From Planctomycetota bacterium (GTDB lineage Bacteria; Planctomycetota; UBA1135; UBA2386): 64,000 bases of DNA. Below the pieces are notes generated by a model. That model did no database searches and was not told the DNA's origin. It saw only the letters and a list, made by a program, of their open reading frames with translations. Location: contig OZ245838.1 in assembly GCA_965228735.1 (NCBI GenBank), positions 2,016,001 to 2,080,000 of the forward strand, read 5' to 3'. This document shows positions 10,848 through 55,323 of this stretch, piece by piece (the stretch's first letter is position 1; every line of letters starts with the position of its first letter). The translations under genes were made by a program, and so were the position numbers.

Positions 10848-11909
10848 CTACTGGTGCACGAACAACGTGATCGGGTTGTAGTTGCGCTGAACCGAGCCCG
10901 TCGTGGCGAACTGCGGCGGCCCCGAGGCTCGCAGAATCGACGTGCGCGGACGGACCCCGGTGAGCACGTGCGCACCGTTGCTGACGATCGCACCACCCGG
11001 CGCGAAGAAGTCGAAGAACACGGCCTGGCTGGCCCAATCGAAGTCGTTGAACGTGGGATCGTTCGGGATCACGAAACTCCAGTTGCGCGCGCCGGAGCTG
11101 CTCGAGATCCCGGTCAGCGTCAGCGCATTCGTGATGTCGATCTGCCCCGTGCAGGTCGGATCGATGCCGGGCAGGAACGACTGCAGGCTGTACGGCGTGA
11201 CCAGGTTGGCACCTGGCTTCATGACGAGCACGCCGAAGCTGCTGCCGGGCGCCGATGTGACGCTCGTCGAGTACGACAGGCCCGGCCGCACCGGCTGAGC
11301 CGTGAGGTTGGGCGTGCCGTTCTGGCCGGCACAACCGACCGGGCCATACGTCACGGGCGAGTAGAAGTCCCCGCGATCGATGCGGTAGGTCCAGGACGTG
11401 CCGCCACCGTTGTTGCCAAAGACCAGATACTCGACGACGAGGTTGCCCTGCGCCGGGTCGTAGGTGAACGGAACCGCGAGGTCGATGAAGAACTGGCCGT
11501 TCGGCAACGGGTTGCTCGGGTCACGCAGATCAGGCAACTGGTAGAGCCCCGGGCCGAACACCGTCACGGGCGTCGACGAGTAGTTGTTGGCGAAGTTGGT
11601 GCCCATCGAGGCCGCAGTTTCCTGCGAGTAGCCCATGCGAATCTCGAGCTGCAGTGCCCGGCCGAGCGAGACCACGGTCGTGCCATCCTCGCGGAAGCCG
11701 ATCTTGCTGATCTGCTGACCCGCCGGAATCGCCAGATCCACGCCCTCGTAGAGCACCTGGACACGGGAGGTTCCGAACGAGAGCGGGAGGTTCGTAGAAC
11801 TGAACGGGCCTTCCGGCACGGCGACGTACTCGTCGGGAAAGATCGTGGTGGTCTGGGCTGTGAGCGCACAGCCGACCATCACGGAGAACAGGGTAGGGAG
11901 TTTGGTCAT
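10848..11909 (-). CDS. Secreted beta-rich protein with shared C-terminal domain
   Basis: Signal peptide MTKLPTLFSVMVGCALTA-Q. C-terminal YGPVGCAGQNGTP...IPNDP...SQAVFFD...SNGAHV. Good codon bias. Confidence 0.8.
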   Translation of the reverse strand: MTKLPTLFSVMVGCALTAQTTTIFPDEYVAVPEGPFSSTNLPLSFGTSRVQVLYEGVDLAIPAGQQISKIGFREDGTTVVSLGRALQLEIRMGYSQETAASMGTNFANNYSSTPVTVFGPGLYQLPDLRDPSNPLPNGQFFIDLAVPFTYDPAQGNLVVEYLVFGNNGGGTSWTYRIDRGDFYSPVTYGPVGCAGQNGTPNLTAQPVRPGLSYSTSVTSAPGSSFGVLVMKPGANLVTPYSLQSFLPGIDPTCTGQIDITNALTLTGISSSSGARNWSFVIPNDPTFNDFDWASQAVFFDFFAPGGAIVSNGAHVLTGVRPRTSILRASGPPQFATTGSVQRNYNPITLFVHQ

Positions 11910-11938
11910 GGTGGTTTCCAGTGTTTACCTCGCCCGAA

Positions 11939-11968
11939 CAGCGACAACTTTTCGCGACGCGTTCGCGA
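11939..11968 (-). promoter_or_regulatory. Upstream motif shared with the ECF gene upstream region
   Basis: Minus strand tcgcgaacgcg-tcgcgaaaagtt-gtcgctg. Confidence 0.35.
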
Positions 11969-12036
11969 TTCGTCGAGAATTCGGTCCACCCCGGACGACT
12001 CCCCAGTCGCCCTGACTCGCTGATCCGACGCCGCGC

Positions 12037-12993
12037 CTAACGCCCGGTTCGATGACCGTCTACGGCTGCCGCGCCCGCGGCGAACTCCTGCCACGCCGCC
12101 TCGATCGCTGCGTCGGCCACCGGACCGCGGCGGATCCAGATGCGATACCGCAGCTCCAACGCGCCGCCCGGCGCGACGACGAGGTCGCCCGTGCCGCGCG
12201 GTGCTCGCGTGAAGTCGTGCAACCCGAACGGGTTGGCCGCGAACAACCCGTAGCCGCGCGCGTGCCAGTGCGTCGGGTGACCGTGATTGCTCGGCGAATC
12301 GAACATCGCGACGGTATGCGGCACCCCGTCGAGGGCGGCCGAGTACGCGACCCAGCGCGCCGGCTTGCCCCACGCCGCCTTGTCGACGTCACCCGCGCTG
12401 TTGCGGATCGACCCCGCGGCGTCCGGGCCGTCGAGACAGAACTCGCTGCGCAGGCGCAGTGCCATCGTGCCTTCCTTCGTGTCCCCGAAGCGCACCTCGT
12501 CATCGCCGGTCACCGTGACGGCGTAGTCGATCGTGCGGGTGTCGCCGTCGACGGCGAACTCCAGCACACGCTGATCGCGGCACACGAGAGTCCCGTCCTC
12601 GGCCCGCCACTCGGAGTCCTGCGTGAGTCGATTGCAGCCCGCTTCGATCCGCGGTTTGCCGACCGCGACGACGCCGCCCTTGCCGGCCCAGAAGTCGATG
12701 CCGTTCACCGCGCCATGCGTGAACCAGCAGCTCTCGTGATGCGGATGGTCCCGGCGTTCGCCCGCGACCTCGGCGAGCGGGAACGCGCGCGTGACCGTCG
12801 CGCCGCCGGTCGCGCACAGCGGCCACAGCACGGGTCCGCGCATCCCGTCGGTGCGATACTCGGCGAACAGGCTGCCGTCCGGCGCGTGGATCGCGACACC
12901 GACGGTCGACGGCTCGAACGTCAGCGGCGGCGCGGACGAACACGCGGCCGCGAGCAGCAGCGGAAGGAGCACGGGGCGAGCACGCCGGGACAT
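12037..12993 (-). CDS. DUF6807 ('PmoA family') lipoprotein
   Basis: Lipobox LAAA-C. P..WPL....G..VTR.FP, DHPHH, NGIDFW, GDTKEG, WHARGYGLFAANPFG. Confidence 0.8.
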   Translation of the reverse strand: MSRRARPVLLPLLLAAACSSAPPLTFEPSTVGVAIHAPDGSLFAEYRTDGMRGPVLWPLCATGGATVTRAFPLAEVAGERRDHPHHESCWFTHGAVNGIDFWAGKGGVVAVGKPRIEAGCNRLTQDSEWRAEDGTLVCRDQRVLEFAVDGDTRTIDYAVTVTGDDEVRFGDTKEGTMALRLRSEFCLDGPDAAGSIRNSAGDVDKAAWGKPARWVAYSAALDGVPHTVAMFDSPSNHGHPTHWHARGYGLFAANPFGLHDFTRAPRGTGDLVVAPGGALELRYRIWIRRGPVADAAIEAAWQEFAAGAAAVDGHRTGR

Positions 12994-13107
12994 GGCAGCA
13001 CTGTCCCGTGCTTGCCGTCGCCGGGCAAGCCGCACCCCGCAATTGCCCACCCCGGCATTTGCCAGTCGAGCATCGTCCGCGACGCCCACGCGAGCCATGA
13101 TGCCGGA

Positions 13108-14535: not shown

Positions 14536-14539
14536 CCCG

Positions 14540-16018: not shown

Positions 16019-16090
16019 CCTCGTGCCACGGTGACCCGGTCAGTTCAGGACGTCGGCGATGGCCTTCTCGCGCATCGCGACCGTCGGCGA

Positions 16091-16260
16091 TCACGCCAGA
16101 GCTTCCGCCAAGGTCTTCGTTCTCGGGACAGAGTGCGAGCGTGCGCCAGTCGAGCTCGGCAACGGTGTCGGCACCGAGAACGCTACGCAGGAGCGGCCCG
16201 GTGTGCGCCCGCTGCGAGAACGTGAAACGGAACAGGCCGTCGTGCCGCGCCCGCAGCGCG
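16091..16260 (-). pseudogene. Remnant of an Rpn/YhgA-like (transposase_31, PD-(D/E)XK) nuclease gene
   Basis: Intergenic minus-strand peptide RHDGLFRFTFSQRAHTGPLLRSVLGADTVAELDWRTLALCPE matches the HD.LF...FS......LL...L......LDW.TL.L N-terminus of the Rpn family, then breaks off. Confidence 0.65.
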
Positions 16261-18043: not shown

Positions 18044-18051
18044 GAACCACC

Positions 18052-26499: not shown

Positions 26500-28209
26500 A
26501 TGCTGACGACATCTCTGCTGCTCGCCACCACCATGATGCCGCAGGGGCCGGGCACCTCGACGGCTCCGATCGTCATCAACGAATTTAGCTACGACGACAC
26601 CGGCGCCAACGACCGCGTGTTCGTCGAACTCTACAACCGCTCGAACTCCCGGGTCGACATCTCGGGCTGGATCCTCCAGGGCTACGACGGCACCTCCACC
26701 ACGCCGACGAACGCCAACGTCACGATCCAGGCCAACACCATTCTCGTCCCCGGTCAGTTCTTCGTCGTCGGTCAGGCCGCCGGAGTGCCCAACGTCGACC
26801 AGGACGTGCCGACGATGAACACGGTCCTCGAGACCGGCCCGGACGGGCTGGCGCTCGAGATGCCGACCGGCGCCGTCGTCGACGCGGTGGCGTGGGAATA
26901 TGCGGGCTGGTCCAACCCGGTGCCGGCCTGGCTCGAGGGCGACGGACTCTTCGGTGACACGCTCAACTCGGACAGCAACCCGCAGTCCGCGAGCCGCGTG
27001 TTCGACGGCTACGACACCGACAGCAACGGCTGCGACTTCCGCGTCGCGCGCTGGTCGCCCGGCACGGCGAACGACGCCGCGCACAGTTCGCCCCCGAACT
27101 ACGAGAACAACTTCGACGGCGCGATCGGCAGCGATGTGAGCGCCGACTTCAACTACTCGTTCGTGCCGGGCACGGTCGAGGACCCGGCGGCGCTCGGCGT
27201 CCCGACCTCGCCGCAGGGCGGCAACGTCTCGACGTGGTACGACGCGACCGGCGGCGGCAACGCGAACTACTTCAGCGCCCCGACGAAGAGCGACTGGGTC
27301 GTCGAGTTCTACGCCTACCTGCGCGGCCCGACGCCGTCCATGGACGCCGATGACGTCGAGACCTGGGCGGTCGGCGTGCGCGGCTCGACCGATTCGTTCG
27401 GTGAACCGGCCGACATCGGCGGGCTCTACAACTACGTCGGATTCAGCTCGTGGGATCCGGGCTGCACGGGCCTGGCCTACTTCATGGACATCCGGAAGAA
27501 CAACTCCAACCTCTACCTCGTCGACTTCAACGACGGCGGCACCGACCCGACGGTCCTCGTCGGCCCGATCTCCGTGCTGCAGGACGGTTGGATGCGCCTG
27601 CGCGTCAGCGTGCTCGGCGACACGGTCAAGTGCAACGTCGGCGGCACCTACGGCTGCGACGACGGCAACCGGTTCGCGTCGAGCGGCATCAGCAACAACC
27701 CGGGCAGCGTCTACATCCAGTACCGCGAGAACGTGAGCGCCTCCGGCGTTCACCGCCCGCTCACGATCGACGCGCTCTGCATCAACGAGAACTTCGCGGC
27801 CAGCTTCACGAGCGTCGGCACCGGCTCCCCGACTTCCGTCGGCATCCCGGTGATCGCCCCCGTCAGCGCCCCGACGATCGGCAACCTCGTGTTCCAGCTC
27901 GCGGGCAGCAACCTCGTGCCGAACAGCTTCAGCTTCATGCTGCTGACCGTCGGTGACGCCACCCTGCCGGGCACCCAGATCCCGGGCGCCCAGGCCGGCG
28001 CGTTGCTCTTCGTCGACAACGTCGGCGCGGCGACGTTCTTCAACGCGAACGACGCCCAGGGCAACTCGGTCAACGGTTGCCCGTTGGCGTGCTCCGCCAC
28101 GTTCACGGGCCTGCCGCTCGCGGCGCAGATCATCGACTTCGACCTGAGCCTGCCGGACGCGGTGCCGGTCGGCACGTCGGCCGGGCTCGACATCACGTTG
28201 GGCAACTGA
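26500..28209 (+). CDS. Secreted lamin-tail-domain protein with shared C-terminal domain
   Basis: IVINEFSYD.....FVELYN.....VDISGWIL (LTD), DTDSN..DF....SPG..N. C-terminal VGTGS....P...P.IG...G....AQ..D...[13 protein letters not shown] gagggg. Confidence 0.85.
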
Positions 28210-31805: not shown

Positions 31806-34787
31806 TTGCGCAACTACGCGACAGCAGCGGCATGCGCCGTGGTGTTTTCCGCGTGCAGCGGCAGCGGCGGCAGTTCTGCCGACGGCAGCACGCAGTTCGC
31901 GGGCTACGGCTTGATCGAACTCACGACGCACGTGCCGGCCGACGGCGCGGTGCAGGTCGCGCCCGAGGCGGCAATCACGCTCGGTTTCGACACCGCGGTC
32001 GCGCTCGACAGCCTCGGCGACGAGGACACGTGGCTGCGCCGCGCCGGTTCGACCGCCAACGTCGCCGGCAGCTGGGCCGTCCAGGACACGGGCAAGACCG
32101 TGGTCTTCCGGCCGAGCACGCCGCTCGCGATTGAATCGGACTACGTCTTCCAGGTCTCCGGCCTGACGTGTGACAACACGGGCCGCCTGCTCGACGAGAC
32201 CATCCAGTTCTCGTTCCGCACGCTCGACGAAACGCCGCCGACGTTCGAGTCGGTCAACGTCACGCCGAACGCCACGGGTCATTCGCGTACGGACGCGTTC
32301 ACGTTCACGTTCTCCGAAGCGATCGACCCGGGCACGCTGTCCGTCGACACGCTCGAGTTGCGCGATGTGTTCGGCGCCGTCTACGCCGGCGCCCGCACCA
32401 CAGCGGCCAACACCGTCGTCTTCGACCCGCACGCCGACCTGCCCGGCAATCGACAGTTCACGCTCACGCTCACGGGCGCCGTGACCGATCGCGCCGGGAA
32501 CGCAATCGCCACGCCCGTGTCCCGCGCGTTCACGACCGAGGGTGACGCCACGAAGCCGTCCGTCGTCACGTTCTGGCCGCCGCAGAGCAGCACGGGGATC
32601 TCCCCGGAGGTCGAACCCACGTACACGTTCTCCGAGTCGATGGACCCCGGCACGGTCGAACCGTCGTCATTGTCGTTCCAGGATGAGTTCGGCAGCATCA
32701 TCCCGTTCGCGATCCACGCGACCGATGATCAGCGCAGCCTGCGCGTCGAACCGCGCGTGCAGCTGCAACCCAACCGCACGTACACCCTCGCGTTCCTGCT
32801 CGGCAGCTCCGCCGCGACGGACGTGAGCGGCAACGTGCTCGAGGCGACCGCCGCACTGCAGTTCACGACGGGAACCGACGCGGCGGCTCCCGTCGTCGTC
32901 GCGAGCACGCCGACGCCCGGCGAGACGCGGGTCTCGCTCAACGCGATCCTCGAGATCACGATGGACGGCGGGCTCGACCCGGCCTGGGTCAACGACCAGA
33001 CCGTGCAGCTCACGGCCGGCGGCCAGTCCGCGGTCGTCATTGTCGAGCAGCCAACCGCCGACGTGATCCGCGTCACGCCCGTGCTCGAACTGCCGACGGA
33101 CACGACCTGCACGCTGACGCTCCGCGGCGGCCACGACGGTCTGCACGACGTCGCCGGCAACGTCATGCCGACGGACCACGAGCTGACGTTCACCACGTCC
33201 GCTGACAGCGATCTGCCGCGGGCGTTGATGATGCCGCCCGACGGCGCCACGGGCGTCCCGGTCTCCGTGCACATGAGCGTCGTGTTCGATGCGGCGATGG
33301 ATCCGTCGACGATGAACTCGTCCACGATCCTCGTCACCGACGATTCGCTCAACCCGGTGGCGGGCACGCTCGAGGTCCTCGCGCAGAACCGCGTCGCGCG
33401 CTTCACGCCGACGACGCAGCTCGCGCCGAGCGCGTACTACCGCATGCGGGTGGTCGGCGGCAGCAACGGCGTCCGGCGACTCTCGGGCAACTGGTTCTCG
33501 ACGGACCGTGAAGCCCGCTTCCGCACCGGCACGAGCAGCGATCAGACGCCGCCGTTCGTCGACGTGTCGGTGAACGGCATCGACGAATCGCGGACCGAAG
33601 GCCTCGTGTTGCCGCCGTTCGGCTTCACGATCGATGTCTCGATCACGGATCCGATCGACCAGTCGATCGACATGAGCTCGGTCGAGATCCTGCTGCAGGG
33701 CACCGGCGTCGGTCCTGGGAGCAGCGAGCTCTACGCCGTCGCGGACGTGCAGTACAACACCCTGCAGGTCCAGGTGCCCGAGTCAGCGGCTCTGCCCGCC
33801 GGTGACTGGGTGCTCACGGTGCGAGCCAACGACCTGAGCGGCAACTCGTCGAGTTCGCCCCAGCTCGCGTTCACCGTCGAGGACTTCTCGCCCAACCTGC
33901 AACCGTTCGAACGCATCCAGGTCGTCTGGGTCCGCCACGACCTCGACCGCGACGGGACCGGGGCGGACGACTTCAGCGAAGACCTGCTTCGCCTCGGCCT
34001 CACGACCGCGGGCGACCCGATCGGCACGAACGCGCGCATGCGCTCGATCGTCCTCGACGGCATCATCGGCAAGGCGAACGAGCTCTACGGGCGCGGCAGC
34101 CGGGGCGAACCGCTCGACAGTGGGTCCGTGTGGCTGCGCTTCACGAAGCGCGCGCCGATCGCGATCCCGCACATGCAAATCGCCATGGGCGGCTTCGATC
34201 CCGAAGGCCCGAGCAACCGCAGCTACGGCGACGAGAGCTCCGGCGTGCTCGGGCGGGCCTACTACGACTACCGCAACGGCAACTTCACCGAGCGCAACAC
34301 CGGCCAGAGCCCGGGCCTCGGGGTCTTCCCGAGTGAGATGTGGCTCTATCAGACCAACATCCACGAGCAGGTGTGGCCGTCGTATCAGACGACCTTCGCG
34401 CAGCGTTTCCGGCCTCTCGCACCGGACATGGGTGGCGTGCCGGCCGGCAGTGGCCCGCTCGATGCGGTCGTCCTCGCCGAGGGTTTCGACTACGCGAGCG
34501 CGAACTCGTCCGAACAGGCCCGCTACCTGTCGATCATGTCGGCCGCGGACGACTGGGCGACCGTGATGGGCATCATTCTCGCGCACGAGGTCGGCCACTC
34601 GGTCGGACTCGTCGCGCCGGGCCCGGCTCCGGGTGGTCTGTTCGGTGACGAGTCGCTGCACAACTCGTTCGCCAGCGCGGCCGAAGTCATGGCCCCGGCC
34701 GTCGGCTACGAGGCGATGCTGACGCTCGACTACGCCTTCCGGGATCTCGACCTCGCCTACCTCCGCCAACGGGTGCTGCTGCGATGA
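31806..34787 (+). CDS. Large lipoprotein: tandem bacterial Ig-like (Big_5-type) repeats plus C-terminal zinc-metalloprotease-like domain
   Basis: Lipobox VFSA-C. Five repeats P..GA..V.....F...MDP...D.aGN.....FTT plus a sixth Ig-like unit. AHEVGHSVGL at ~34584 with downstream His and VM. TTG start inferred. Confidence 0.8.
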   Translation: MRNYATAAACAVVFSACSGSGGSSADGSTQFAGYGLIELTTHVPADGAVQVAPEAAITLGFDTAVALDSLGDEDTWLRRAGSTANVAGSWAVQDTGKTVVFRPSTPLAIESDYVFQVSGLTCDNTGRLLDETIQFSFRTLDETPPTFESVNVTPNATGHSRTDAFTFTFSEAIDPGTLSVDTLELRDVFGAVYAGARTTAANTVVFDPHADLPGNRQFTLTLTGAVTDRAGNAIATPVSRAFTTEGDATKPSVVTFWPPQSSTGISPEVEPTYTFSESMDPGTVEPSSLSFQDEFGSIIPFAIHATDDQRSLRVEPRVQLQPNRTYTLAFLLGSSAATDVSGNVLEATAALQFTTGTDAAAPVVVASTPTPGETRVSLNAILEITMDGGLDPAWVNDQTVQLTAGGQSAVVIVEQPTADVIRVTPVLELPTDTTCTLTLRGGHDGLHDVAGNVMPTDHELTFTTSADSDLPRALMMPPDGATGVPVSVHMSVVFDAAMDPSTMNSSTILVTDDSLNPVAGTLEVLAQNRVARFTPTTQLAPSAYYRMRVVGGSNGVRRLSGNWFSTDREARFRTGTSSDQTPPFVDVSVNGIDESRTEGLVLPPFGFTIDVSITDPIDQSIDMSSVEILLQGTGVGPGSSELYAVADVQYNTLQVQVPESAALPAGDWVLTVRANDLSGNSSSSPQLAFTVEDFSPNLQPFERIQVVWVRHDLDRDGTGADDFSEDLLRLGLTTAGDPIGTNARMRSIVLDGIIGKANELYGRGSRGEPLDSGSVWLRFTKRAPIAIPHMQIAMGGFDPEGPSNRSYGDESSGVLGRAYYDYRNGNFTERNTGQSPGLGVFPSEMWLYQTNIHEQVWPSYQTTFAQRFRPLAPDMGGVPAGSGPLDAVVLAEGFDYASANSSEQARYLSIMSAADDWATVMGIILAHEVGHSVGLVAPGPAPGGLFGDESLHNSFASAAEVMAPAVGYEAMLTLDYAFRDLDLAYLRQRVLLR

Positions 34788-35785
34788 ACCGCTTCTTCTT
34801 CGACCTGGTCTCACGCGGCGCGCTCGCCGGCGCGCTCGTCGCCATCGTCCCCGCCCAACAGCAGGCGACGACGCTCGCGCGCGCCGTCGACCGCGCACCG
34901 GTGGTCGTCGTCGCGACGGTCACGGCAGCGACCGACCCGTCGCCGATGTGGCATCGCCTCGAGTGGCGCACGGATCGGGTGCTCAAGGGTCAGGTCGCAC
35001 CGACGTTCGCGTTGCTCGAGCCCGCGGGAGCCTGCTGCGGCCGCAGCCTCTTCGCGTTGCGAACCGGCGAACAGCGGCTGCTGTTCCTCGACCGCCGGGG
35101 CCCCCGGCTCCATCCGTTCGGCGGCAATCGCGGCGTCCTCTCGGTCGACGCCAGCCTGCTCGCCCACGTGCAGGCGCTGCTGCTGAACGACACCCCCGCC
35201 ACGCGTGGGCGCCTGCTCGCTCGCAGCCTCGACCATCCGAGCGCAAGGGTCGCGATGGACGCGGCCCTGGCGCTCACGGAACTGCCGAGCCTCGACCTCG
35301 ACGCGTCGTCGCGCGGCCACGTCGGACGCGCACTCCGACTCGCCGTGCAGCGGTGCCAGACCTCGTCCCCGGCGCTGCTCGACGTCGCCCTGCGAACCAC
35401 GGACCCAGGCCTGCTCGACACCGCACTCGGTCTCTACGTCACCACCAAGGACCGTGGCCAGGCCCGCCAGCTGCGCCGCGGCCTGCTGCGCGCGAACGCG
35501 GGCCAGATCGCCACTCGCCTGCCGGTCGTGCTGACACAGGAGGCGGCCGTCGAGATGCGCGCGGCCGAACTCTTGCGGGCGCTGCCCACCCACCAAGGAG
35601 GCCCGGCGCTGCAGAGCCTGCTGGCCCGCACGTCGTGCCCGCGGGTGAAGCTCTGCGCGACGGAAGGTCTGCTCGCAGCCGGCCACCCACCGCGCTCCCT
35701 GACCGGCAGCGTGCCGGCCGCGATCCTCGAACTCGCAAAGCGTCGGGTCTCCGCGCTCCGCTTCCGCACCATCGGCCGCGACTGA
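34784..35785 (+). CDS. Secreted hypothetical protein with HEAT-like helical C-terminus
   Basis: Signal ...ALVAIVPA-QQQ. TL...VDRA.VVV.ATV...VLKG N-terminal unit, then Leu/Ala/Arg helices. ATGA overlap with the upstream gene. Confidence 0.65.
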   Translation: MNRFFFDLVSRGALAGALVAIVPAQQQATTLARAVDRAPVVVVATVTAATDPSPMWHRLEWRTDRVLKGQVAPTFALLEPAGACCGRSLFALRTGEQRLLFLDRRGPRLHPFGGNRGVLSVDASLLAHVQALLLNDTPATRGRLLARSLDHPSARVAMDAALALTELPSLDLDASSRGHVGRALRLAVQRCQTSSPALLDVALRTTDPGLLDTALGLYVTTKDRGQARQLRRGLLRANAGQIATRLPVVLTQEAAVEMRAAELLRALPTHQGGPALQSLLARTSCPRVKLCATEGLLAAGHPPRSLTGSVPAAILELAKRRVSALRFRTIGRD

Positions 35786-35787
35786 GG

Positions 35788-37638
35788 ATGACCGACGGCT
35801 CCGACTACCCGGCGAACGCCGCGCTGCGCCTGCTGCCCGAGCGACTGCTCCGGCTGCCGCTCACCGATCTCGGCCTCACCTCGGCCGCGGTCGCGCTCGC
35901 GCACGAGCACGGGGCCGAGATCGTCGGCGACCTGCTGCCGGCAGACCCGACGAAGGAACACGACTGGCTCAACGAGACCACGATCGACGCGATCCGGCGC
36001 GGCCTCGACAACCTCCTCGTGCGAGGTCTCCCCGAACCGTCGGCGACCCGGCCGTTCGACCCGCTCGATTGGCCGTCGCTGCAGGGCCACCTGCTGCTGC
36101 CGCTCGATGACGATCAGCGGGCGCTGCTGCGTGCGGTGACGGGCCTCGACGAACCGCCGGTCTCACTCGTGCACTATGCCCGCGTGGCAACCATGGACCT
36201 GCGCGCCGCGACCGAGCTCGCGGAACGCACCCGCGCTCAGCTGCACGAACGGTCACGCGAGCTGCTGCCGCGGCTGCGCGACGAGATCATGCGCGAGATC
36301 GAGACGTTCGACGGTGTCGTCGACCCGCTGAAGATCGCGTGCGGCTCGATGCTCGCCACGATGGCGGAGGCCAACGGCGACCCGGCGTTCCCGATGCGGC
36401 TCGCGGCGTTCTGCCTGCCGACCGAGGTCCACCTCCGCCAGGGCTACCTCGTCGGCATGTCGCCGAGCGGGCTCAACCGGCTCATCGATCAACTGCGCGC
36501 GGCGATCGCGCGCCGTCAGCTGCCGGTCCCGCTCACGGAGATCGCGGCCGAGGTGCAGGGCGGGCGGGACGTGCCGACGGGGCTCCTGACGCACCTGCTG
36601 CGGAAGGAGCTGCGCCTGTCGTTCGAGATCCGGGAGGAGGGCGAGGTCATCGTCCCCGATCCGCGTTCGCCCGCGACCCGTCTCGCCGAGATCCTCGACG
36701 AGGACCGCGCCGCGATGCGGCTCAACGACCTCGTGTTCGCCTATCGCGACCGCTACCGCCGCGCCAACCCGCGCCACCTCGAACAGATCCTGCGCAGCAA
36801 CGATACGTTCGTCGTGGTCGGCCCCGACCTCTTCGCGCTGCGCCAGTGGCACGAGGACGAGTTCGAGGCCGCGGAGGCGGTCGCCGACCGCGCCGCCCGC
36901 TGGATCGTCGCCGAAGACGGCAAGCAGGACGTGTTGAAGTGGCTACGGGACGACGGCTGCACCGACACGGCCGCCTGGCTCGTGATGGACGTGCTGCGCC
37001 GCGACGAACGCGTGCGCCTGCTCGGTCGCGGCGAAGCCTGTCCGGCGACCGAACGCCGCTCACAGGTCATGGTCAAGTTGCTCGCCGACTTCCGCCGCGC
37101 ATCGGGCGATGTCGTCGAGAGCCTGTTCGTCGAGAACCAGCCCGACGATCGCCGCCGCCTCGTGCAGCGCCTGCTCGACGAGAACCGGCTCTTCGTCCGA
37201 CCCGAACCCGACCGCGTCGATACGCTCACGAACTACCCGTTCAACGAGGAGCGGCTGCGGCGGACGCAGACGCTCGTGCAGAAGGTGCTCGACGACCGAG
37301 GTGGCTATGCGCCGACCGACGTCGTGAAGAAGGGGGTCGACCAGACCGACCTCGGCGGCACCTGGCTCACGCCGATGTTGCTCGAGGACCTGATCCGGCG
37401 ACACGGCTGGTTCGACGTGCTGCCCGGCGGCGTGATCGCGCTGCGCGACCGCAAACTCGCGGCCCGCCTGACCTGGCTCGCGCGGCAGGAGCTCCGCGAC
37501 GCGGGCGTCCAGCTCACGGTCGACGAGATCCTGCGCCAGCGCACGGACCTCGCGGAGTTCGCCGACTGCCTCGCCGGCCTGCTGCACGCGGACCCGCTCG
37601 TGCACTCGCAGGACGGCAAGCGGTTCTGCCTCGTCTGA
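35788..37638 (+). CDS. Cytoplasmic protein with alpha-CTD-like, sigma-region-4-like and winged-helix (HARE-HTH-like) segments
   Basis: LLRLPLTDLGLTSAAVALAHEHGAEIVGDLL, LDDDQRALLRAVTGLDEPPVSL, LAEIL..DRAAMRLNDL...LEQILRSNDTFVVVGPDLFALRQW. Starts 2 bp after the upstream stop. Confidence 0.65.
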   Translation: MTDGSDYPANAALRLLPERLLRLPLTDLGLTSAAVALAHEHGAEIVGDLLPADPTKEHDWLNETTIDAIRRGLDNLLVRGLPEPSATRPFDPLDWPSLQGHLLLPLDDDQRALLRAVTGLDEPPVSLVHYARVATMDLRAATELAERTRAQLHERSRELLPRLRDEIMREIETFDGVVDPLKIACGSMLATMAEANGDPAFPMRLAAFCLPTEVHLRQGYLVGMSPSGLNRLIDQLRAAIARRQLPVPLTEIAAEVQGGRDVPTGLLTHLLRKELRLSFEIREEGEVIVPDPRSPATRLAEILDEDRAAMRLNDLVFAYRDRYRRANPRHLEQILRSNDTFVVVGPDLFALRQWHEDEFEAAEAVADRAARWIVAEDGKQDVLKWLRDDGCTDTAAWLVMDVLRRDERVRLLGRGEACPATERRSQVMVKLLADFRRASGDVVESLFVENQPDDRRRLVQRLLDENRLFVRPEPDRVDTLTNYPFNEERLRRTQTLVQKVLDDRGGYAPTDVVKKGVDQTDLGGTWLTPMLLEDLIRRHGWFDVLPGGVIALRDRKLAARLTWLARQELRDAGVQLTVDEILRQRTDLAEFADCLAGLLHADPLVHSQDGKRFCLV

Positions 37639-37654: not shown

Positions 37655-40108
37655 TCAGAAGACGCCGATCGTCAGCTCGAGCGCGTTGGAGGCGCTCAGC
37701 GTGAGCAGCGTGTTGCCGGCACCGACCTCGAACTGCAGAAACTGGTGGTACAGGGCAAGACCGGCGAACGCCGTCGTGTCGGGCACGTCGAACGCGAACG
37801 TCCCCACCCCGGTCGGCGGCTGCGTGAGCAGGATCGCCTCCTGACTCGCGAGCTGATTGCAGTGCGGCAGCGTGTTGGGCCACAGCCAGGTCAACGGCAC
37901 GTTGGGCGAACTCAGGCCGATCAGGGCGACGGCGAGGCTGCCGCTCGCGAACCCGGTCGCGGTCGACGTGAACGATCGCCCGGCCCAGGGCCGCTCCTGA
38001 GCGGTCAGGGTCAAGGGCCCCGCCGGCCCGATACAGGAGGTCGGCAGGTCGACCCGATCGGCCGCACACGGCGTCGAGAGGCGGGCGAAATAGGCCGCGA
38101 ACTCGTCGCCCACCTCGAAGAACGTGCCGGCAAACGCGAGTTCACCGTGATCGCCCCACGCCACGTCCAGGACCTCCACACCCGACGTGCCGCCGAGCGC
38201 GAGTTCCGTCCAGGTCGTGCCGTCCCACCGGGCCGGCTGGATCCGCGGCGCGGGGTACGGCTGCCCGAGCCAGCCGGCGGCCACCAGATCACCGTCGGGC
38301 AACACGGCCAGGTCGCGGACCGGCTGCGGCATCCCGGCGCCGAGCGGTGACCACACAGCGCCGTCCCAGCGCGCGACGAAGCGGGCCGGCGCGCCGCCGG
38401 CGTTCACGAAGTTGCCGCCCGCAACCAGGTCGCCGTCACGCAGCACGGCGAGCGCCAGCACGTTGTCCTCGATGCCGCTGCCGAGCGGCGACCAGGTCGC
38501 GCCGTCCCAACGCGCGATGTTCCGACAACCGACGCCGCCGGCCGACATGAACCGCCCCCCGGCGACGACGTCGCCGTTCGGCATGACGGCGAGGGCATAC
38601 ACGTACCAACTCGGCCACGCCCCGAGACTCGACCACGCGGTCCCGTTCCATCGCGCCACGAACGGAGCCCACGCGCCACCGGCATGGAGGAACTCACCGC
38701 CGGCGAGCACGTCACCACCCGGCAGCTCGAGGAGCGCGTGCACGGTGCCGTCGAGGCCGGCTCCGAGCGGCAGCCACTGGGCGCCGTCCCAACGCGCGAT
38801 GCGGTTCGCCGGCGCGTTGCCCGCGGTGAGGAACGCACCCGCGACGATCAGGCTGCCATCGGAGTGCCGCAGCATGGCGTTGGGAGCCCCGCCGAGGCCG
38901 GCCCCGAGCGGCGACCACGAGCCCCCGACGAGACGCGCGATGTGCGACAGCGGCTGGCCACGGATCGACTCGAAGTCACCGCCGACGATCCAGCCGCCGT
39001 CCGGCGTCGCGACCGCCGCCGTGGTCCGCCGATCGAGCCCCGTGCCGCGCGCGAACGGCGTCCACTGCGTCCCGTCGAACCGCCCCACCCCGTAGAAGTC
39101 CTCCGATTGGGACGACGTGTTGCCGCCCGCGAACAGGTCACCGTTCGGCAGCTCCGCCACCGCGTAGATCCACCAGCGGACGTCGGGGACGCTGGTCCAA
39201 CCGTTCCCGTCCCAGATGCCCGACCGGATCTTCCCGGCGGCGTAGAGGTTGCCGTTCTGCAACAACGTGAACGCGAGCGGCTGCGTCCCCATCCCGCCGA
39301 TCCCGACCCAGCCCTGACCGTCCCACGACACGATGCCGGGCGCCGGAACCGTACCTGCCATCGAGAAGGATCCGCCGACGACCAGGTCGCCGTTCGGCAT
39401 CATGATCATGTCCGAGACGCCGCCGTTGAGGCCGCCGCCCATCGTCTGCCACAGTGCGCCGTCGAACCGCCGGATCGCGAACGACGGCGTGATGTACGTC
39501 TCGAAGTGGCCGCCGGCCACGATGTCGCCGTTGTTGAGGCGCGCGAGCGCGTTCACCGTCGGCGAGAACCCGGTGATCCCGCCGCCGAACTCCGACCACG
39601 ACGTGCCGTTCCAGCGCGCGATCGCGCGCGCCGGCACGCCACCGATGTCGGTGAACGATCCGCCCGCGAGCAGATCCCCGCCCGGCAGCGGCAGCAGCGC
39701 GTTCACCCCGCCGCTGACGGCGGGCGCGGCGCCGAGCAGGTGCCACGCCGTCCCGTCGAACCGCCAGACCCCGCCGGCGCTTGCCACGAGCTCGCCGTTG
39801 CCGAGCACCGCGAGCGCCGTGCCGCGGGCCGGCAGGCCGTCGCCGAGGCTCGCCCACAACCCCGTCGCCGGGTCGTAGGCCGCCACGTGATTGGCGACGA
39901 GCCCGAACGCGACGACGAAGGAGCCGGTGATCACGAGCCGACGCGGCACGGGTCCGGCGCCGTCCGGGTCCCACCACGTCGCGGCCGCGACCGCGCCGAC
40001 GACGCCCGGGAAGTCCTCGCCGGGCTCTCCCTGCAGGGTGCACTGACCACGCGCGGACGCGGCGAAGGACAGTAGAACGACGAGGACGGCTGCTTGGGTC
40101 GTGCGCAT
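37655..40108 (-). CDS. Secreted double beta-propeller repeat protein with shared C-terminal domain
   Basis: About 13 repeats of V.AL..LPNGDLVAGG.F..AGG..A..IARWDG..W.PLG.G. Signal ...ASARG-Q. C-terminal ...GLALYHQ...ASNALELTIG. Confidence 0.9.
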   Translation of the reverse strand: MRTTQAAVLVVLLSFAASARGQCTLQGEPGEDFPGVVGAVAAATWWDPDGAGPVPRRLVITGSFVVAFGLVANHVAAYDPATGLWASLGDGLPARGTALAVLGNGELVASAGGVWRFDGTAWHLLGAAPAVSGGVNALLPLPGGDLLAGGSFTDIGGVPARAIARWNGTSWSEFGGGITGFSPTVNALARLNNGDIVAGGHFETYITPSFAIRRFDGALWQTMGGGLNGGVSDMIMMPNGDLVVGGSFSMAGTVPAPGIVSWDGQGWVGIGGMGTQPLAFTLLQNGNLYAAGKIRSGIWDGNGWTSVPDVRWWIYAVAELPNGDLFAGGNTSSQSEDFYGVGRFDGTQWTPFARGTGLDRRTTAAVATPDGGWIVGGDFESIRGQPLSHIARLVGGSWSPLGAGLGGAPNAMLRHSDGSLIVAGAFLTAGNAPANRIARWDGAQWLPLGAGLDGTVHALLELPGGDVLAGGEFLHAGGAWAPFVARWNGTAWSSLGAWPSWYVYALAVMPNGDVVAGGRFMSAGGVGCRNIARWDGATWSPLGSGIEDNVLALAVLRDGDLVAGGNFVNAGGAPARFVARWDGAVWSPLGAGMPQPVRDLAVLPDGDLVAAGWLGQPYPAPRIQPARWDGTTWTELALGGTSGVEVLDVAWGDHGELAFAGTFFEVGDEFAAYFARLSTPCAADRVDLPTSCIGPAGPLTLTAQERPWAGRSFTSTATGFASGSLAVALIGLSSPNVPLTWLWPNTLPHCNQLASQEAILLTQPPTGVGTFAFDVPDTTAFAGLALYHQFLQFEVGAGNTLLTLSASNALELTIGVF

Positions 40109-40222: not shown

Positions 40223-41785
40223 CTAGCCCTCTTCGGACTCCGCTTCGGCCGCGGCCTCGCTGCCGACGCCGACGCGCCCCGTCACCGGGTGCGAGCTCGT
40301 GACCTCGCTCGTCGTCGCCTCCTCGCCATCGAAGCTCAGCAGCCGCCCCTTGCCGTCCTGCACGGTCTCGATGTGCACCGGCCGCTTCCACATCTGGAAC
40401 AACCCCTGCAACGTGAGCATCGCCTCGTCGAGCTGCAGGTCGCCCTTCACCCACTGGTGCACGAGGTAGAGCTCGCCGCGGTTCTTGTGGTTGGCGTCGA
40501 CCACCTTGATGATCGGGTTGCCGTGGTTCGTCAGAGCCTCGAGCAGCTGCGTCTTCACCTTGGTGTAGTCGCGGTCGAGGATCACGACCTCGCCGGTCTG
40601 CGGGTCCTGCCCGTAGACGAACATCTTCTGCGCCTCGGCGAACTCCGGCGTCACGAACTCGTCGACGAACGTGATGTCGTTGTAGATCCGCCGCACCTCG
40701 AAGACCTTGGCGCGCCCCTCGTTGGTCGGGCGGTGCCAGTTCTTGCGCACGTCCGGATCGTCGCAGCTCTGGTACTCGACCCCGAACTTGCCCGTGTTCC
40801 AGCGTTCCTCGATGTCGCGGAAGAGCTCGACACCGAGCTTGTACGGGTTGATCTGACCCGGCGCCGTGCCGAGCGTGCCGCTGTGCGTGTCGCAGTAGTT
40901 GATGATCTCGGTCGCGTCGCACAGGTGGCGGGTCATCAGGTGGCTGTGCCAGAACACGGCCCAGCCCTCGTTCATGATCTTCGTCATGCCCTGCGGCGCG
41001 AAGTAGTAGGCCTCCTCGCGCAACATCGCGAGCACGTCCTGCTCCCACGTCTCGAGCGGCGCGTAGTCGAGCAAGAACTTGAGGACGTCGCGCTCCGGCC
41101 TGGCCGGGAACTGACGGGCCGCCTGGTCCTCCTCGTCGAGCCGCTCGCGCTCCCGCTCGAGGAACTCGGGCGGGTTGATGTAGCGGTCCATGTAGTCCTT
41201 GGCCGCGATCTTCTGCACCTCGCGCTGCGGCGCATCGTCCTTCTTCGGCGGCGCCGACCGCCGGTTCGTGCCGCGGTCGAAGTACGGCGAGTACGGGTCG
41301 ATCAGGTTGTCGAGCGACTGCACGAGGTCGATGAAGTTCTCGACGCGCTCCTGACCGTGGCGGTCCATGTAGCGCCGGATGCGCGAACCGTGGTTCGCCA
41401 TCACGTCCATCATCTTGCGCGACGTGTGACCGAACCACGCGTTGTTCTTGAAGAAGTCGCAGTGGCCGTAGACGTGCGCCATCACGAGCTTCTGCTCCGT
41501 GATCGCGTTGCTGCGCATCAGGTACGCGTAGCACGGGTCGTTGTTGATCACGAGCTCGTAGATCTTCGACAACCCGTATGCGTAGCTCTTGCTGAGCTGC
41601 TCGTACTCCATGCCGAAGCGCCAGTGCGGGTATCGCGTCGGGAAGCCGCCGTAGCTCGCGATCATGTTGAGCTCGTCGTAGTCGACGAGCTCGAAGATGA
41701 CCTCGTAGAAGTCGAGCCCGTAGCTCTTCGCGAGATCGCGGGTCTCGTCACGGAGCGCGGCGAGTTCGGGGGTGAGGTTGCCCAT
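40223..41785 (-). CDS. spoVR: SpoVR/YcgB family protein
   Basis: YGGFPTRYPHWRFG, SKIYELVINNDPCYAYL, MAHVYGHCDFFKNN, EAYYFAPQGMTKIMNEGWA, NPYKLG. Confidence 0.95.
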   Translation of the reverse strand: MGNLTPELAALRDETRDLAKSYGLDFYEVIFELVDYDELNMIASYGGFPTRYPHWRFGMEYEQLSKSYAYGLSKIYELVINNDPCYAYLMRSNAITEQKLVMAHVYGHCDFFKNNAWFGHTSRKMMDVMANHGSRIRRYMDRHGQERVENFIDLVQSLDNLIDPYSPYFDRGTNRRSAPPKKDDAPQREVQKIAAKDYMDRYINPPEFLERERERLDEEDQAARQFPARPERDVLKFLLDYAPLETWEQDVLAMLREEAYYFAPQGMTKIMNEGWAVFWHSHLMTRHLCDATEIINYCDTHSGTLGTAPGQINPYKLGVELFRDIEERWNTGKFGVEYQSCDDPDVRKNWHRPTNEGRAKVFEVRRIYNDITFVDEFVTPEFAEAQKMFVYGQDPQTGEVVILDRDYTKVKTQLLEALTNHGNPIIKVVDANHKNRGELYLVHQWVKGDLQLDEAMLTLQGLFQMWKRPVHIETVQDGKGRLLSFDGEEATTSEVTSSHPVTGRVGVGSEAAAEAESEEG

Positions 41786-41799
41786 GGTTCTGTCCTGGC

Positions 41800-42903
41800 T
41801 CAGCGCCCCTTCTTCAGGAACTCCTTGATGCTCGGCAGGATGCCCTCGCGATCGAGGATGTCGGTCGTCACGACCTTCTCCTCGCCGCGGAACGCGCTGT
41901 CGAGGTCCTTCTTGAACTGACCGCTGCCGTAGGCGCTCTTGACCTGGCCGTAGCAGAACTGATTGCACACCGGCAGGACCGAGTCCTTGAGCAGCGACAT
42001 GCAGTGCTCGGTGTCGCGCGCGCTCCAGTTGTCGCCGTCGCTGAAGTGGAACGGATACACGTTCCATTCCTGCGCCGGATACTTGTCGCGCATGATCTGC
42101 ATGCAGAGCTCGTAGGCCGAGCTGATCTTCGTGCCGCCGCTCTCGCGCAGGTGGAAGAACGTGTGCTGGTCGACCTCGTGCGCGACCGCGTCGTGCACGA
42201 TGTAGTGCACTTCGAGGTTCTTGTATTGGTGCCGGAGCCAGGTATCGATCCAGAACGCCTCGATGCGGACGATCTCCTTCTGCTCGCGCCCCATCGAGCC
42301 CGACACGTCCATCATGTAGATGATCGCGGCGCTCGCCTGCGGCATCTCGCGGGTCTCGAGCGAGCGGAAGCGCATGTCCTCGCGGATCGGCACGACGACC
42401 GGATGCTCCGGGTCGTAGGTGCCGGACGCGATCTGCCGCTTGAGCGCCTCGCGGAACGTGCGCTTGAAGTGCCGCAGCGAGTTGGGCCCCGACCGCGAGA
42501 TGCCGGTGTAGCGCCCGCCCAGCGTGCGGACGTTCTTCTTGCCCTTCGGCTCGATGTTGGGGAGCTCGAGCTCTTCGCCGAGGATCTTCGCGAGGTCTTC
42601 GAGCGAGACCTCGACCTCGAGCATGTGCTGGCCCTCGTTCTCGCCCGCTTCGCCGGCACCCTCGCCGTCCTGCCCCGGCACGCCCTGGCCGTCCTCGCCC
42701 TCACCCTGGCCGACGCCGCCCTTGTTCTCGCCGTGGCGGAACCGCGGCAGCTGGATCTGCGGCAACGGGATCGTGACGTACTTCTGCCCCTGCTTGCCGA
42801 TGAGCTCGCCAGAGCTGACGAAGCGCTTGAGGTTGCGCTTCACGCGACCCCGAACGATGTTGCGGAACCGCGTGTGGTCCTGGTCGATGCGTCGAACGGA
42901 CAC
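41800..42903 (-). CDS. yeaH: YeaH/YhbH (DUF444) vWA-like protein
   Basis: [49 protein letters not shown]. Confidence 0.93.
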
Positions 42904-42910
42904 GCCGGCC

Positions 42911-44938
<2,028 letters not shown>

Positions 44939-48195: not shown

Positions 48196-48263
48196 GGTGG
48201 CCGGCCGAACGGCCTGATCGCGCGAATTGAGTCAGCGGGGGTCGCTTCCCGATAGGCCACGGC

Positions 48264-50240: not shown

Positions 50241-50284
50241 GGAGCGCTGGCCGCGACCACACCGCTATGGTCGCGACTCTCGGA

Positions 50285-51829: not shown

Positions 51830-51896
51830 GCCCGCGATTAGACCGCTCGCAGCGCGCCGTAACAGCCCCACGGCGGCGGCAGCTCCCGCGCGCGCG

Positions 51897-53906
51897 TCAG
51901 CGCAACGGCGCGATCCACGTGGTTGCCAGCCACGGATCGCCGCGATCGGCGATGGTGCGACAGAGCGTGCGCAACGCCGGCGCCGGCGTCAGCGAGTAGG
52001 GCTCGCCATCCGCGGGGACGAAGGTCACGGGCCGCGTCAGATCGACGAGCCGGACATCGAGCCACGCTTCGGCCGCGGCGATCTCCGTCAGCTCGTACTC
52101 GACGGCCTGGTCGGCACACCGCACCGCGGCGTGCTGCCCGCTGCGCGGGTCCGCCACGCGCAGCCAGTAGTGCTGACGCACGACGCCGTCGCTGGGCCGC
52201 CAGGTCAGGTGCCGCGGCAGTTCGGATCTCTGCAACGGCACGAGCTCGGCCAGCAGGTCGCGGTCCGGCAAGCCGCCGTGACCGTTGCCCTCGACGAGCG
52301 TGAACCTCGTCGGGTAGCGCCCCGAGGATTCGGCCTGCAGCTTCGCGAGTGCTGCGGCGAACCGTTCGCAGCGCTCGCGCCGTCCGTACGCGGTGTCCTT
52401 GCCGCCCACCATGAACGAGAACCGCAGCGAGTGCAGTCCGTCCGGCAGGCTCTGTCCGTCGGTCGGCGCGGCCGCGCTGCTGTGCACCGCCGCGAAGCGG
52501 TGTGGCAGCTTGGGGCCGAGCGCGAACGCGCCATAACCGCCGTGGCTGTAGCCGATCGCGACGACGCGGTTCGGATCGACGCCGTCACAGGCGACGAACT
52601 GCCGGATGAGCTTCTCGAGCACCGGGTAGAAGTAGTCGGTGTAGAAGCCGTTCCACTCGTCGGTCGGCGCCCGCAACGCGCAGTAGAGGTAACCGCCGGC
52701 CTCGGGATGGTCGTGGTAGTAGACCTGCATGTGGCGCCACTGCGAGTCGTTGAACCTCTTCGGGACGCCACCGCCGCCGTGCATCGCGATCACGAGCCCC
52801 CAGCCGTCGTCCGGCCGGTCGCCGACCTGCTCGACCGTGAACGGGCTCGTCTTGCCCCCCGCCGTGACGCGCCGGGCTTCGTGATCCTCGATCAGTCGCG
52901 GTCGCTCACTGCGCCGCCACGCCGCGAACGCCAGCCGCCGCAACCGCGCGTCGCCTTCGACGGTCAGAAGCTCGGCATCGAGGTTGCGATCGAACTCGAA
53001 CGTCGCGCGGCGGTCCGCGTCGGCCGCGAAGTAACGGTCGAGCTGCGCGTTCAAGGCATCGTCCGCCGAACCGGTAGCCGCCGCCGGGCCCGGAGCCGCG
53101 GCGGCAGTCCCGGGATCCTGCGGCGCGTAGCGCGCCGTCACGTCGATCCCCCAGAGCTCGATCCCGCGACCCCAGCCCGCGCGGAACCGCTGCCCGGTCG
53201 GCGCGAACGACACCGCCCAGATGCGATGCTCCGGGTCGGCGTCGGCGCACTTGCTCGCGTCCCCGACGAACCACGCGCGGTCGAGACCCTGCGGGTCGGG
53301 CTCGTCCGCCCCGCAGAAGCGCCAGCGTTCGCCGTCCCAGACCTCGACCCAGGTGTGGTTGCCGCGCTTGTGCGGCCATCGCACGGAGACGAGCCGGGCC
53401 GGCACGCAGCACGCCCGACACGCGTCGGCCAACAGGATCGACAAGCCGGTGCAGCTCGCCTTGCCCTGCGCGATCGACTCGCTCGGCGCCTGATCGGCGC
53501 GCCGGCGCGCGGTCGAGTAGTGCACGTTCAACTCGTCGAAGACGATCTCGTTGAGCCGGCGCGCGGCCGCGCCCGGCGTCTGGCAGTCGAGCACGCGCGG
53601 CAGGAACCGACGCTGCAGATCCGAGCGCCAGTCCTCGCGCTTCTCGTTGGCCTGGGCGTAGGGCACGACGTAGTTGAGAAACAGCTGCTCGCCGAGCGCC
53701 GCGCCCCACGGGACCTGCTGCCGCGCCTCGAACGCGAGCCGGACCTCGCGGGCGAGCGCGGCGTCGTCGACCCGTTCGCGGTCCGCGGTCGACTGATGGC
53801 GCCGCAGGAACGCGACCGCCGCGGCCTCCGCCGACTCGTCGGTCTGCGCCACGGCGGGAACCGCGACGGAGAACACCAGGATGGACAGCGCGAGGGTGGT
53901 CCGCAT
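51897..53906 (-). CDS. Secreted transglutaminase-like domain fused to alpha/beta-hydrolase (esterase) domain
   Basis: ASCTGLS...VPAR...NHTWVEVWD (C-H-D triad). LVIAMHGGG, GYSHGG, GGKD, GNGH. Signal ...PAVA-Q. Confidence 0.85.
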   Translation of the reverse strand: MRTTLALSILVFSVAVPAVAQTDESAEAAAVAFLRRHQSTADRERVDDAALAREVRLAFEARQQVPWGAALGEQLFLNYVVPYAQANEKREDWRSDLQRRFLPRVLDCQTPGAAARRLNEIVFDELNVHYSTARRRADQAPSESIAQGKASCTGLSILLADACRACCVPARLVSVRWPHKRGNHTWVEVWDGERWRFCGADEPDPQGLDRAWFVGDASKCADADPEHRIWAVSFAPTGQRFRAGWGRGIELWGIDVTARYAPQDPGTAAAAPGPAAATGSADDALNAQLDRYFAADADRRATFEFDRNLDAELLTVEGDARLRRLAFAAWRRSERPRLIEDHEARRVTAGGKTSPFTVEQVGDRPDDGWGLVIAMHGGGGVPKRFNDSQWRHMQVYYHDHPEAGGYLYCALRAPTDEWNGFYTDYFYPVLEKLIRQFVACDGVDPNRVVAIGYSHGGYGAFALGPKLPHRFAAVHSSAAAPTDGQSLPDGLHSLRFSFMVGGKDTAYGRRERCERFAAALAKLQAESSGRYPTRFTLVEGNGHGGLPDRDLLAELVPLQRSELPRHLTWRPSDGVVRQHYWLRVADPRSGQHAAVRCADQAVEYELTEIAAAEAWLDVRLVDLTRPVTFVPADGEPYSLTPAPALRTLCRTIADRGDPWLATTWIAPLR

Positions 53907-54090
53907 GCCGTGGTCATACCGCACGGTCGAACACCGCGGAATCATCCCCCATCGCCGGGTCGCAATACGCTCGCCCGTCGCCCACCGGTCGAGAGGCGTG
54001 AGCCGATCGGTCACACCGCGAGTCGCGACCGTTTACAGTGCGAGAGGCTCGACCGCCGGTCTCGCCCTACCGATCCGACCACGCCTTCGC

Positions 54091-55323
54091 ATGCGCCACC
54101 ACCTCATCGCCGCCGTCCTGTCCTGCTCCACGACCGTCGTCGCCCAGACCATCGACCCGACGTTCGCTGGCGTCTACACCGCGACGGATCTCGGTTTCGT
54201 GCCGGGCGTCCCCACGCCGTACGGCGGCATCGTGTTCAAGGCGAACGCGCCGAACACTCTGTTGATCGGGGGCTTCGCCAACCAGACGAGCGCCGCGATC
54301 TACGAGATCGACGTGACCCGCGACAGCCAGGGGTTCATCACCGGCTTCGTCGGCACGGCTACCCAGTTCGCGACGGCCCCGCAGATCGACGGGGGCCTGT
54401 GCTACGGCCCGAATGGCGTGCTGTTCTTCACGACGTACAACAACAATACCCTCGGCCAGATCAAGCCGGGCAGCACGTCGCCCGACAAGACCATCGCGCT
54501 CACTGCGCTCGGGGTCGCGTCATCGACCGGCACGTGCAACTTCGCGCCCGCCAACTTCCCCGGCGCCGGCGAACTCAAGGTCGCGTCGTTCAGCAGCTGG
54601 GGCTTTTACAGCTTCCAGGTCACGCCCGATGGCACCGGCACGTTCGACATCACGCCGACCACGGGCCCGGTCAGCGTGAACGGCGGCCCCGAAGGCATCC
54701 TCTACGTCCCGCCCGGCTCGGCACTGATCCCGGACTACCAGTACGTGCTCATCAGCGAATGGGGCGCGGGTGCGGTCGGGCTCTACCGGATCGACGGCAA
54801 CGGCGATCCGATCCTGGCCTCACGAATCCCGTTCATCACGGGGCTGACCGGCGCCGAAGGCGCGTGCACGGACCCGATCACGGGCGACCTCGTGTTCTCG
54901 ACGTTCGGCGGCGGTGATCGGGTGCTCCGGATCACCGGTTTCGGCGTCTGCGGCAGTCACACGAACTACGGCACCGGCATCGCGGGCCAGAACGGCGCTC
55001 CCGCGATCGCCGGCGGCGGCTGCGCCGGCCGCGGTCAGATCACGACGATCGACGTGACCAACGGCCCGCCCGGCGCGACTGGTTTGCTGGCCGTCGGCTT
55101 CACGCAGGCCAACATCCCCGTGCTCGGCGGCGCGCTGCTCGTGAACCCGGTGAACAACTTCTTCCACTTCCTCGACGGCGCGGGCCAGTGGAGCCTCACG
55201 GTGTTGCTGCCGGTCGACCCCAGCTGGAACGGGCTCAACATCTACTCGCAGAGCTTCTACCTCGACCCGGGCGCGAGCCAGGGCATCGCAGCCACGAACG
55301 GGCTGCACACGCTCGTGCGTTGA
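54091..55323 (+). CDS. Secreted beta-propeller-like protein with shared C-terminal domain
   Basis: Signal ...STTVVA-Q. IDGGL.YGPNGVLFFT.Y, GPEG..YVP, GAEGA..DP.TGD..FSTFGG. C-terminal YGTG.AGQNGAP...PVDP...G....SQ...D...TNGL. Confidence 0.85.
   Translation: MRHHLIAAVLSCSTTVVAQTIDPTFAGVYTATDLGFVPGVPTPYGGIVFKANAPNTLLIGGFANQTSAAIYEIDVTRDSQGFITGFVGTATQFATAPQIDGGLCYGPNGVLFFTTYNNNTLGQIKPGSTSPDKTIALTALGVASSTGTCNFAPANFPGAGELKVASFSSWGFYSFQVTPDGTGTFDITPTTGPVSVNGGPEGILYVPPGSALIPDYQYVLISEWGAGAVGLYRIDGNGDPILASRIPFITGLTGAEGACTDPITGDLVFSTFGGGDRVLRITGFGVCGSHTNYGTGIAGQNGAPAIAGGGCAGRGQITTIDVTNGPPGATGLLAVGFTQANIPVLGGALLVNPVNNFFHFLDGAGQWSLTVLLPVDPSWNGLNIYSQSFYLDPGASQGIAATNGLHTLVR

Follow-up and report, generated by a model that had tools for sequence, protein, structure and literature searches.

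Four otherwise unrelated proteins encoded in a 64-kb stretch of planctomycete DNA (the window, meaning the whole stretch analysed) share a single domain of ~135 residues that belongs to a very large family, is absent from every library that we searched and recurs on hundreds of proteins of the source genome (G000; 7.19 Mb, 69% G+C, 93% complete). We propose, with about even confidence, that this predicted Ig-like module is a docking tether, not cleaved, that would hold Sec-exported passengers at the envelope through a hydrophobic patch predicted to pair.

Recovery and size of the domain family

The domain had originally been matched by eye at the C-termini of the four proteins, P0001 to P0004. 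This match needed a profile test, since only the P0001-P0004 pair is significant in pairwise comparison (E 0.001-0.002; all other pairs E ≥ 0.9). Profile iteration started from any one of P0001, P0003 and P0004 retrieves the remaining two of these three. P0002, which as sole seed finds itself only, is picked up midway in every one of the three runs (E 1e-8 to 1e-13) and is lost from the last round in two of them. In the final profile P0001 to P0004 score E 3e-19, 1e-15, 2e-28 and 3e-25, all four being in the training set by then, and reversed six-frame decoys gave no matches, which rules out a chance or composition artefact. The proposal of one domain common to all four is therefore upheld by a significant profile alignment reached from three separate seeds, and the spans drawn by eye agree with the profile spans to within about 30 bases.

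The refined profile has 145 positions and matches 295 six-frame ORFs with HMMER filters and 345 of 5,393 gene models without them, within the tens to hundreds of copies foreseen by the original prediction. Some 6% of the genes in G000 encode carriers, which together make up about 9% of its coded residues; no protein of this genome has two full copies of the domain, and mean identity among the paralogous copies is 22%. A database search found 28,397 clusters (50% identity) at E ≤ 0.001 among 1.84 billion representatives. Neither Pfam nor NCBIfam has a match to the domain on the four proteins or on 63 aligned members, and the PDB has no sequence match, which rules out an already-catalogued domain; in particular, no characterised carbohydrate-binding or Ig domain, the identity against which the original prediction had been set, matches it. 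ESM Atlas matches are Planctomycetota clusters without names. We found no description of the domain in the literature covered (subscription papers and bioRxiv supplements lay outside this coverage), and it is unmentioned in the accessible portions of PMC12419801, 10.1101/817700, PMC1569441, PMC11032199 and 10.64898/2026.10.26.761892.

The four window proteins

The ORFs of all four proteins are present with signal-peptide-like N-termini and the endings quoted for them in the original prediction, and their starts are identical in independently made gene models. P0002 (569 aa; 26500..28209, plus strand) consists of a signal peptide, a lamin-tail domain (residues 19-132; PF00932), a middle region and the shared domain (residues ~433-569; 27796..28206), which is the most divergent of the four copies and lacks both cysteines described below. 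P0003 (817 aa; 37655..40108, minus strand) carries DUF5122/Rax2-type propeller repeats by Pfam between its signal peptide and the shared domain (residues ~681-817; 37658..38068). The lamin-tail and WDG-repeat propeller passengers first read from these two sequences are thus borne out. In P0004 (410 aa; 54091..55323, plus strand), a signal peptide and a passenger first read by eye as another propeller, for which Pfam has no match, precede the shared domain (residues 287-410; 54949..55320), the copy that we used for fold and dimer models; homologues of this passenger in other bacteria bear PEP-CTERM, dockerin or T9SS tails.

P0001 (353 aa; 10848..11909, minus strand) differs in that its shared domain (residues ~186-320; 10950..11354), delimited by the profile and by Ig-like matches over the same model residues, is predicted to be inserted in the jelly-roll fold of the passenger. 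Single jelly-roll chains of 130-161 aa align with the P0001 model from residue 15-40 through 353, which would make residues 321-353 (10851..10949) the last jelly-roll strands. In a paralogue at G000:5088387, a segment like this tail lies directly after the N-terminal part and ahead of the terminal domain (a weak match, E 0.5, with the motif visible), and the inserted arrangement is kept in 119 of 119 homologues among the matches listed. The beta character first assigned to the P0001 passenger holds, as a modelled jelly-roll that the domain splits, and the tail of ~35 aa taken for an appendix after the domain is instead the modelled end of the passenger.

The profile search found no fifth member in the window. 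Adjoining the P0001 gene is an ECF sigma/Ser-Thr kinase pair (6815-10726). On the plus strand, 31839-37638 spans a large gene for a lipoprotein-like product of 982 aa and, after it, two genes whose products look exported; the C-terminus of the 982-aa product is common to one paralogue, and similar lipoproteins of 900-1,300 aa occur elsewhere in the genome. At 40223-44938 (minus strand) lie three adjacent genes that, labelled by eye, we take to resemble a PrkA/YeaH/SpoVR module.

Position, passengers and composition of carriers

As anticipated for a domain nearly always C-terminal on varied exported proteins, 317 of the 345 copies (92%) have no more than 15 aa between domain and stop; a tail of 16-50 aa follows the domain in 14 more, and one of more than 50 aa in another 14. 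In nine of 12 inspected long-tail ORFs the domain directly follows the signal peptide, and seven genes encode a signal peptide and the domain only, with no passenger. The best 150 database matches comprise 149 terminal copies and one N-terminal copy. A terminal signal that is cut off does not fit the N-terminal, stand-alone and inserted copies.

Composition and signal counts were made on 301 filtered hits rather than on all 345. By a simple heuristic, a Sec-type signal peptide is present in 214 of these 301 carriers and in 1,345 of 4,314 other genes; six carriers have a TM-like window (also heuristic), only one or two are lipoprotein-like and none has a Tat motif. Glutamine directly follows the signal-peptide cleavage site in 196 of the 301 carriers and in many other exported proteins, a pattern like the Bacteroidota Q-rule. 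Carriers are low in Lys/Arg (lysine 0.5% vs 2.7% in other proteins) and rich in Ser/Thr/Asn, a pattern reported for PEP-CTERM and LPXTG proteins in the accessible part of PMC1569441.

The 282 passengers long enough for comparison form 102 clusters, of which 78 have a single member. Pfam scanning of 88 carriers, drawn from carrier-dense regions and not at random, left about half without a match and named Kelch, DUF5122/Rax2, FG-GAP and BNR/sortilin propellers, LamG, an esterase, peptidases S1, S8, M14 and M43, beta-lactamase-family (serine) hydrolases and di-haem peroxidases. The family offers a direct means of listing exported enzymes and adhesin-like proteins in several little-known planctomycete lineages. 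Genes adjoining carriers are enriched only for ECF-type sigma factors and for Ser/Thr kinases, of which 33 out of 71 lie no more than two genes from a carrier against a background of 17%; this suggests that carriers may be outputs of ECF sigma/Ser-Thr kinase signalling modules. One lipoprotein, at G000:C1:5826957-5828531 (plus strand; FG-GAP-like repeats by eye), also bears the domain and is a candidate membrane anchor if paralogues pair.

Predicted fold and pairing

The AlphaFold2 model of the P0004 copy (pLDDT 95, pTM 0.87) is all-beta; to an Ig-like sandwich it adds a strand at the N-terminus and a long C-C' hairpin. Foldseek found nothing at E ≤ 0.001 in the PDB or viral libraries, its weaker matches including lipid-binding ML-domain proteins (E about 0.01). 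VIA-align ranks macroglobulin (MG) domains and Ig domains of the LILR/LAIR type highest, with Z of 8-9 (7q1y_A, Z 9.3, rmsd 2.7, 101 aligned; 7s62_A, Z 8.2, rmsd 3.0, 101 aligned); at ~10-17% identity, these matches score near the level of a common fold and carry no functional inference. No T9SS CTD structure is among the best 50 matches of either VIA search with the Ig-like model.

Both conserved cysteines are present in 174 of 285 paralogues, neither in 50 and a single one in 22, with gaps in 39. Because the two co-occur and form the top covarying pair, the domain likely bears a disulfide. Covariation also couples the added N-terminal strand to the final one, so that the two termini would lie together at one end of the domain, with the patch toward the other. 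Of the two sheets, one has polar outward residues, and the second is hydrophobic on its two faces and nearly free of charged residues.

We modelled a homodimer for the P0004 copy. The two-copy model scores 0.51 vs 0.02 for the best control, with 100% contact agreement between runs and pLDDT ≥ 94; the mark that we applied was reached by 20 of 30 solved true pairs and one of 23 monomers, counts that are roughly valid here, as the domain's own paralogue alignment was used. The modelled dimer is two-fold, with an interface formed by the hairpin tip, the C' edge strand and the F-G loop. Seven of the 19 columns that make up the interface are hydrophobic in ≥ 73% of the 285 paralogues and charged in ≤ 4%, and the interface taken whole is only modestly richer in hydrophobic residues than the other columns (50% vs 45%). 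The conserved hydrophobic patch is thus predicted to pair with another copy.

Distribution and exchange with other tails

The domain is lineage-restricted, as had been supposed. It is present in 150 of the 151 genomes of the order. In a phylum-wide sample, 67 of 301 genomes have it, 59 of them with at least four matches and eight with one to three; at most 13 candidates for the domain and 20 for dockerins were scored per genome in this sample. In the phylum sample the 59 domain-rich genomes, none of which has more than five dockerin matches, do not overlap with the 32 dockerin-rich ones, an exclusion that is largely one split among kin and hence non-independent.

The informative case is the exception within the order, G015 (91% complete, 240 contigs), with no copies of the shared domain and 39 dockerin matches. 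In 20 of its regions chosen around dockerins, G+C is uniform at 47-51% and all 32 dockerins are C-terminal. Eight of the nine dockerin passengers with a relative in G000 match a shared-domain carrier, vs none of 61 other ORFs; the best such pair is 50% identical over 454 aa. Dockerins therefore stand in for the shared domain in G015, a within-order swap seen in this one 240-contig MAG.

Homologous passengers also show interchange with known sorting and anchoring tails. Among the 119 P0004-passenger homologues listed, 48 end in the shared domain and 10 in a sister form (hhalign 95.9% against the shared domain), 20 have PEP-CTERM/VPDSG tails by Pfam and 19 more by a loose pattern, three have dockerins by Pfam and more by pattern or eye, and one (P0114) has a T9SS tail; none has two tail types.

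Search for machinery and partners

No machine gene recurs beside carrier genes. PorV (NF033709) gave no match over the cut-off in five domain-rich genomes including G000, its control being matched in Bacteroides, and SLH (PF00395) was found in none of five genomes, on carriers or elsewhere, with the control matched in four. Cohesin (PF00963) gave no match in G000, its control being matched, although divergent cohesins could escape this search, and none in three of four dockerin-rich genomes. Searches for SprA and PorP/SprF had no match, their controls being equally without one, as were those of the PF18962 genome searches. A single exosortase and three PEP-CTERM tags are encoded in G000, along with three Omp85 and seven secretin genes; exosortase is present in two of four domain-rich genomes tested and was not found in the other two (G017 and G115).

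An operon phylum-wide in distribution (in G000, locus L060, G000:C1:6765856-6784599; orthologous loci L165-L184) encodes a secretin lipoprotein with TPR, a 949-aa TPR protein, a 390-aa exported protein, ExbB, two to four ExbD, a second secretin and a HAD-like hydrolase, followed in G000 by a gene that is actin-like by motif (by eye). It brings together two secretins and a proton-motive stator, with neither an ATPase nor pilins adjacent, and we found no literature on such a secretin-pair/ExbBD operon. We rejected it (G000:6769699-6784599) as a dedicated exporter of carriers for want of specificity: 59 of 64 genomes tested have it, whatever their tail type, and genomes that lack the shared domain are among them. 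Among 30 heuristic barrel candidates, those with names are porins, a TonB receptor, Omp85, secretins and others, nine have no Pfam match, and none above 1,250 aa resembles a giant translocon by eye. Large Ig-rich lipoproteins were likewise set aside as scaffolds, their C-termini forming families of only two or three members. A Pel-type exopolysaccharide cluster (label by eye) with a TPR-barrel gene lies at G000:C1:178610-192474.

Proposed role

The original prediction cast the domain as a sorting or anchoring signal. Its surface attachment or assembly option stands, whereas the analogy with T9SS, PEP-CTERM and sortase tags fits less well, because the domain also occurs N-terminal, alone and inserted, dockerin is its closest stand-in and no dedicated machine was found. 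In the tether that we favour, passengers would be exported by Sec, carriers would fold in the periplasm, the folded carrier would cross by a general route (secretins are present), and retention, at the outer surface or in the periplasm, would come from domain-to-domain pairing among paralogues or on an envelope partner. Position independence, the dockerin swap, the exclusion of dockerins in the phylum sample, the exchange of tails on homologous passengers, the dimer model, the cysteine pair and carrier composition speak for this reading. Against it, 92% of copies being C-terminal and none occurring twice in a protein would suit an export address too, a hydrophobic patch might serve to bind lipid, and simple dimers give pairs, not anchoring, with so few carriers lipoprotein-like.

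An export address, in our view doubtful but possible, would be a folded, uncleaved handle that a translocon of the outer membrane, either type II secretion or the product of the secretin/TPR/ExbBD operon, recognises in the periplasm, with dockerins in the same role in other lineages. The single, mostly C-terminal copy per protein, the exchanges with T9SS and PEP-CTERM tails and the need of large folded passengers for a way out, in a genome with seven secretin genes, are all as expected of it, and cohesins are largely missing from dockerin-rich planctomycetes. The dimer does not decide between tether and address, since the T9SS signal, as described in the accessible part of PMC4804311, is an Ig-like sandwich that also dimerises. 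Passenger-less genes and N-terminal or inserted copies sit poorly with an address, as do the lack of PorV in G000, the lack of a machine gene recurrent beside carriers and the occurrence of the two-secretin operon in genomes without the domain. Should the patch instead meet lipid, the hairpin tip and F-G loop would enter the outer membrane or bind lipid directly, and the predicted dimer would only bury the patch; we think this distinctly unlikely. A sheet hydrophobic on both faces and almost free of charges, a patch that would point away from the termini and the ML-domain proteins among the weak Foldseek matches fit such an anchor, which needs no protein partner, consistent with none being found. 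However, the ML-domain matches are non-significant, the dimer model passes its controls, and a Ca-binding dockerin would be an improbable substitute for a lipid finger. Least credible, and very improbable to us, is a generic accessory domain (for substrate binding, spacing or folding) that expanded in the clade with no sorting or docking role: the fold is generically Ig-like (best Z 8.2-9.3) and paralogues are as divergent as stated above, yet the domain is never repeated, nearly always terminal and found on passengers from at least 102 clusters, and its occurrence is mutually exclusive with that of known tails, both on the same passenger and across genomes.

Returning to the tether, an unlikely extension of it is a mixed protein coat, free of any scaffold, into which hundreds of different exported proteins would assemble by means of one self-complementary domain. 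Any carrier could pair with any other, carriers without a passenger and lipoprotein carriers would fill and anchor the coat, and neither a sortase nor a cohesin nor a dedicated translocon would be required. If true, surface display would here follow a new principle, one that covers ~9% of the coding capacity of these uncultured planctomycetes. Tether or export address, either would be an envelope system for which we found no published description, and the exchange with dockerins in a cohesin-less relative bears on the role of non-cellulosomal dockerins.

Comparison with known systems

Like PEP-CTERM/exosortase tags (PF07589, PF09721), the shared domain occurs many times per genome, at the C-terminus of signal-peptide proteins with the same compositional bias and the same passengers; unlike them, it has no PEP motif, transmembrane helix or basic tail. 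The T9SS CTD of type A (PF18962/TIGR04183) is likewise placed C-terminally on many Sec cargoes, and the Ig-like sandwich predicted for the shared domain, with its additional elements, recalls the T9SS fold. However, hhalign against one T9SS tail gives 0.1%, none of the 63 members has a Pfam match, and the shared domain is longer and has the extra N-terminal strand, the hairpin and the cysteine pair. In contrast to the T9SS CTD, it is also not strictly C-terminal, with 28 of 345 copies followed by more than 15 aa and with N-terminal, inserted and stand-alone forms.

Dockerin type I (PF00404), including the non-cellulosomal planctomycete form, shares with the domain a single, mostly C-terminal copy on diverse exported proteins and the same slot on homologous passengers. 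Dockerin is a Ca-binding helical module of ~65 aa, whereas the shared domain is modelled as all-beta and ~135 aa; hhalign between the two gives 0.2%, and G000 has no PF00404 match. The shared domain is predicted to self-pair, unlike dockerin, and G000 has no cohesin that we could find. In slot and scale, the shared domain resembles both the dockerin and the T9SS tail, and it is a member of neither family.
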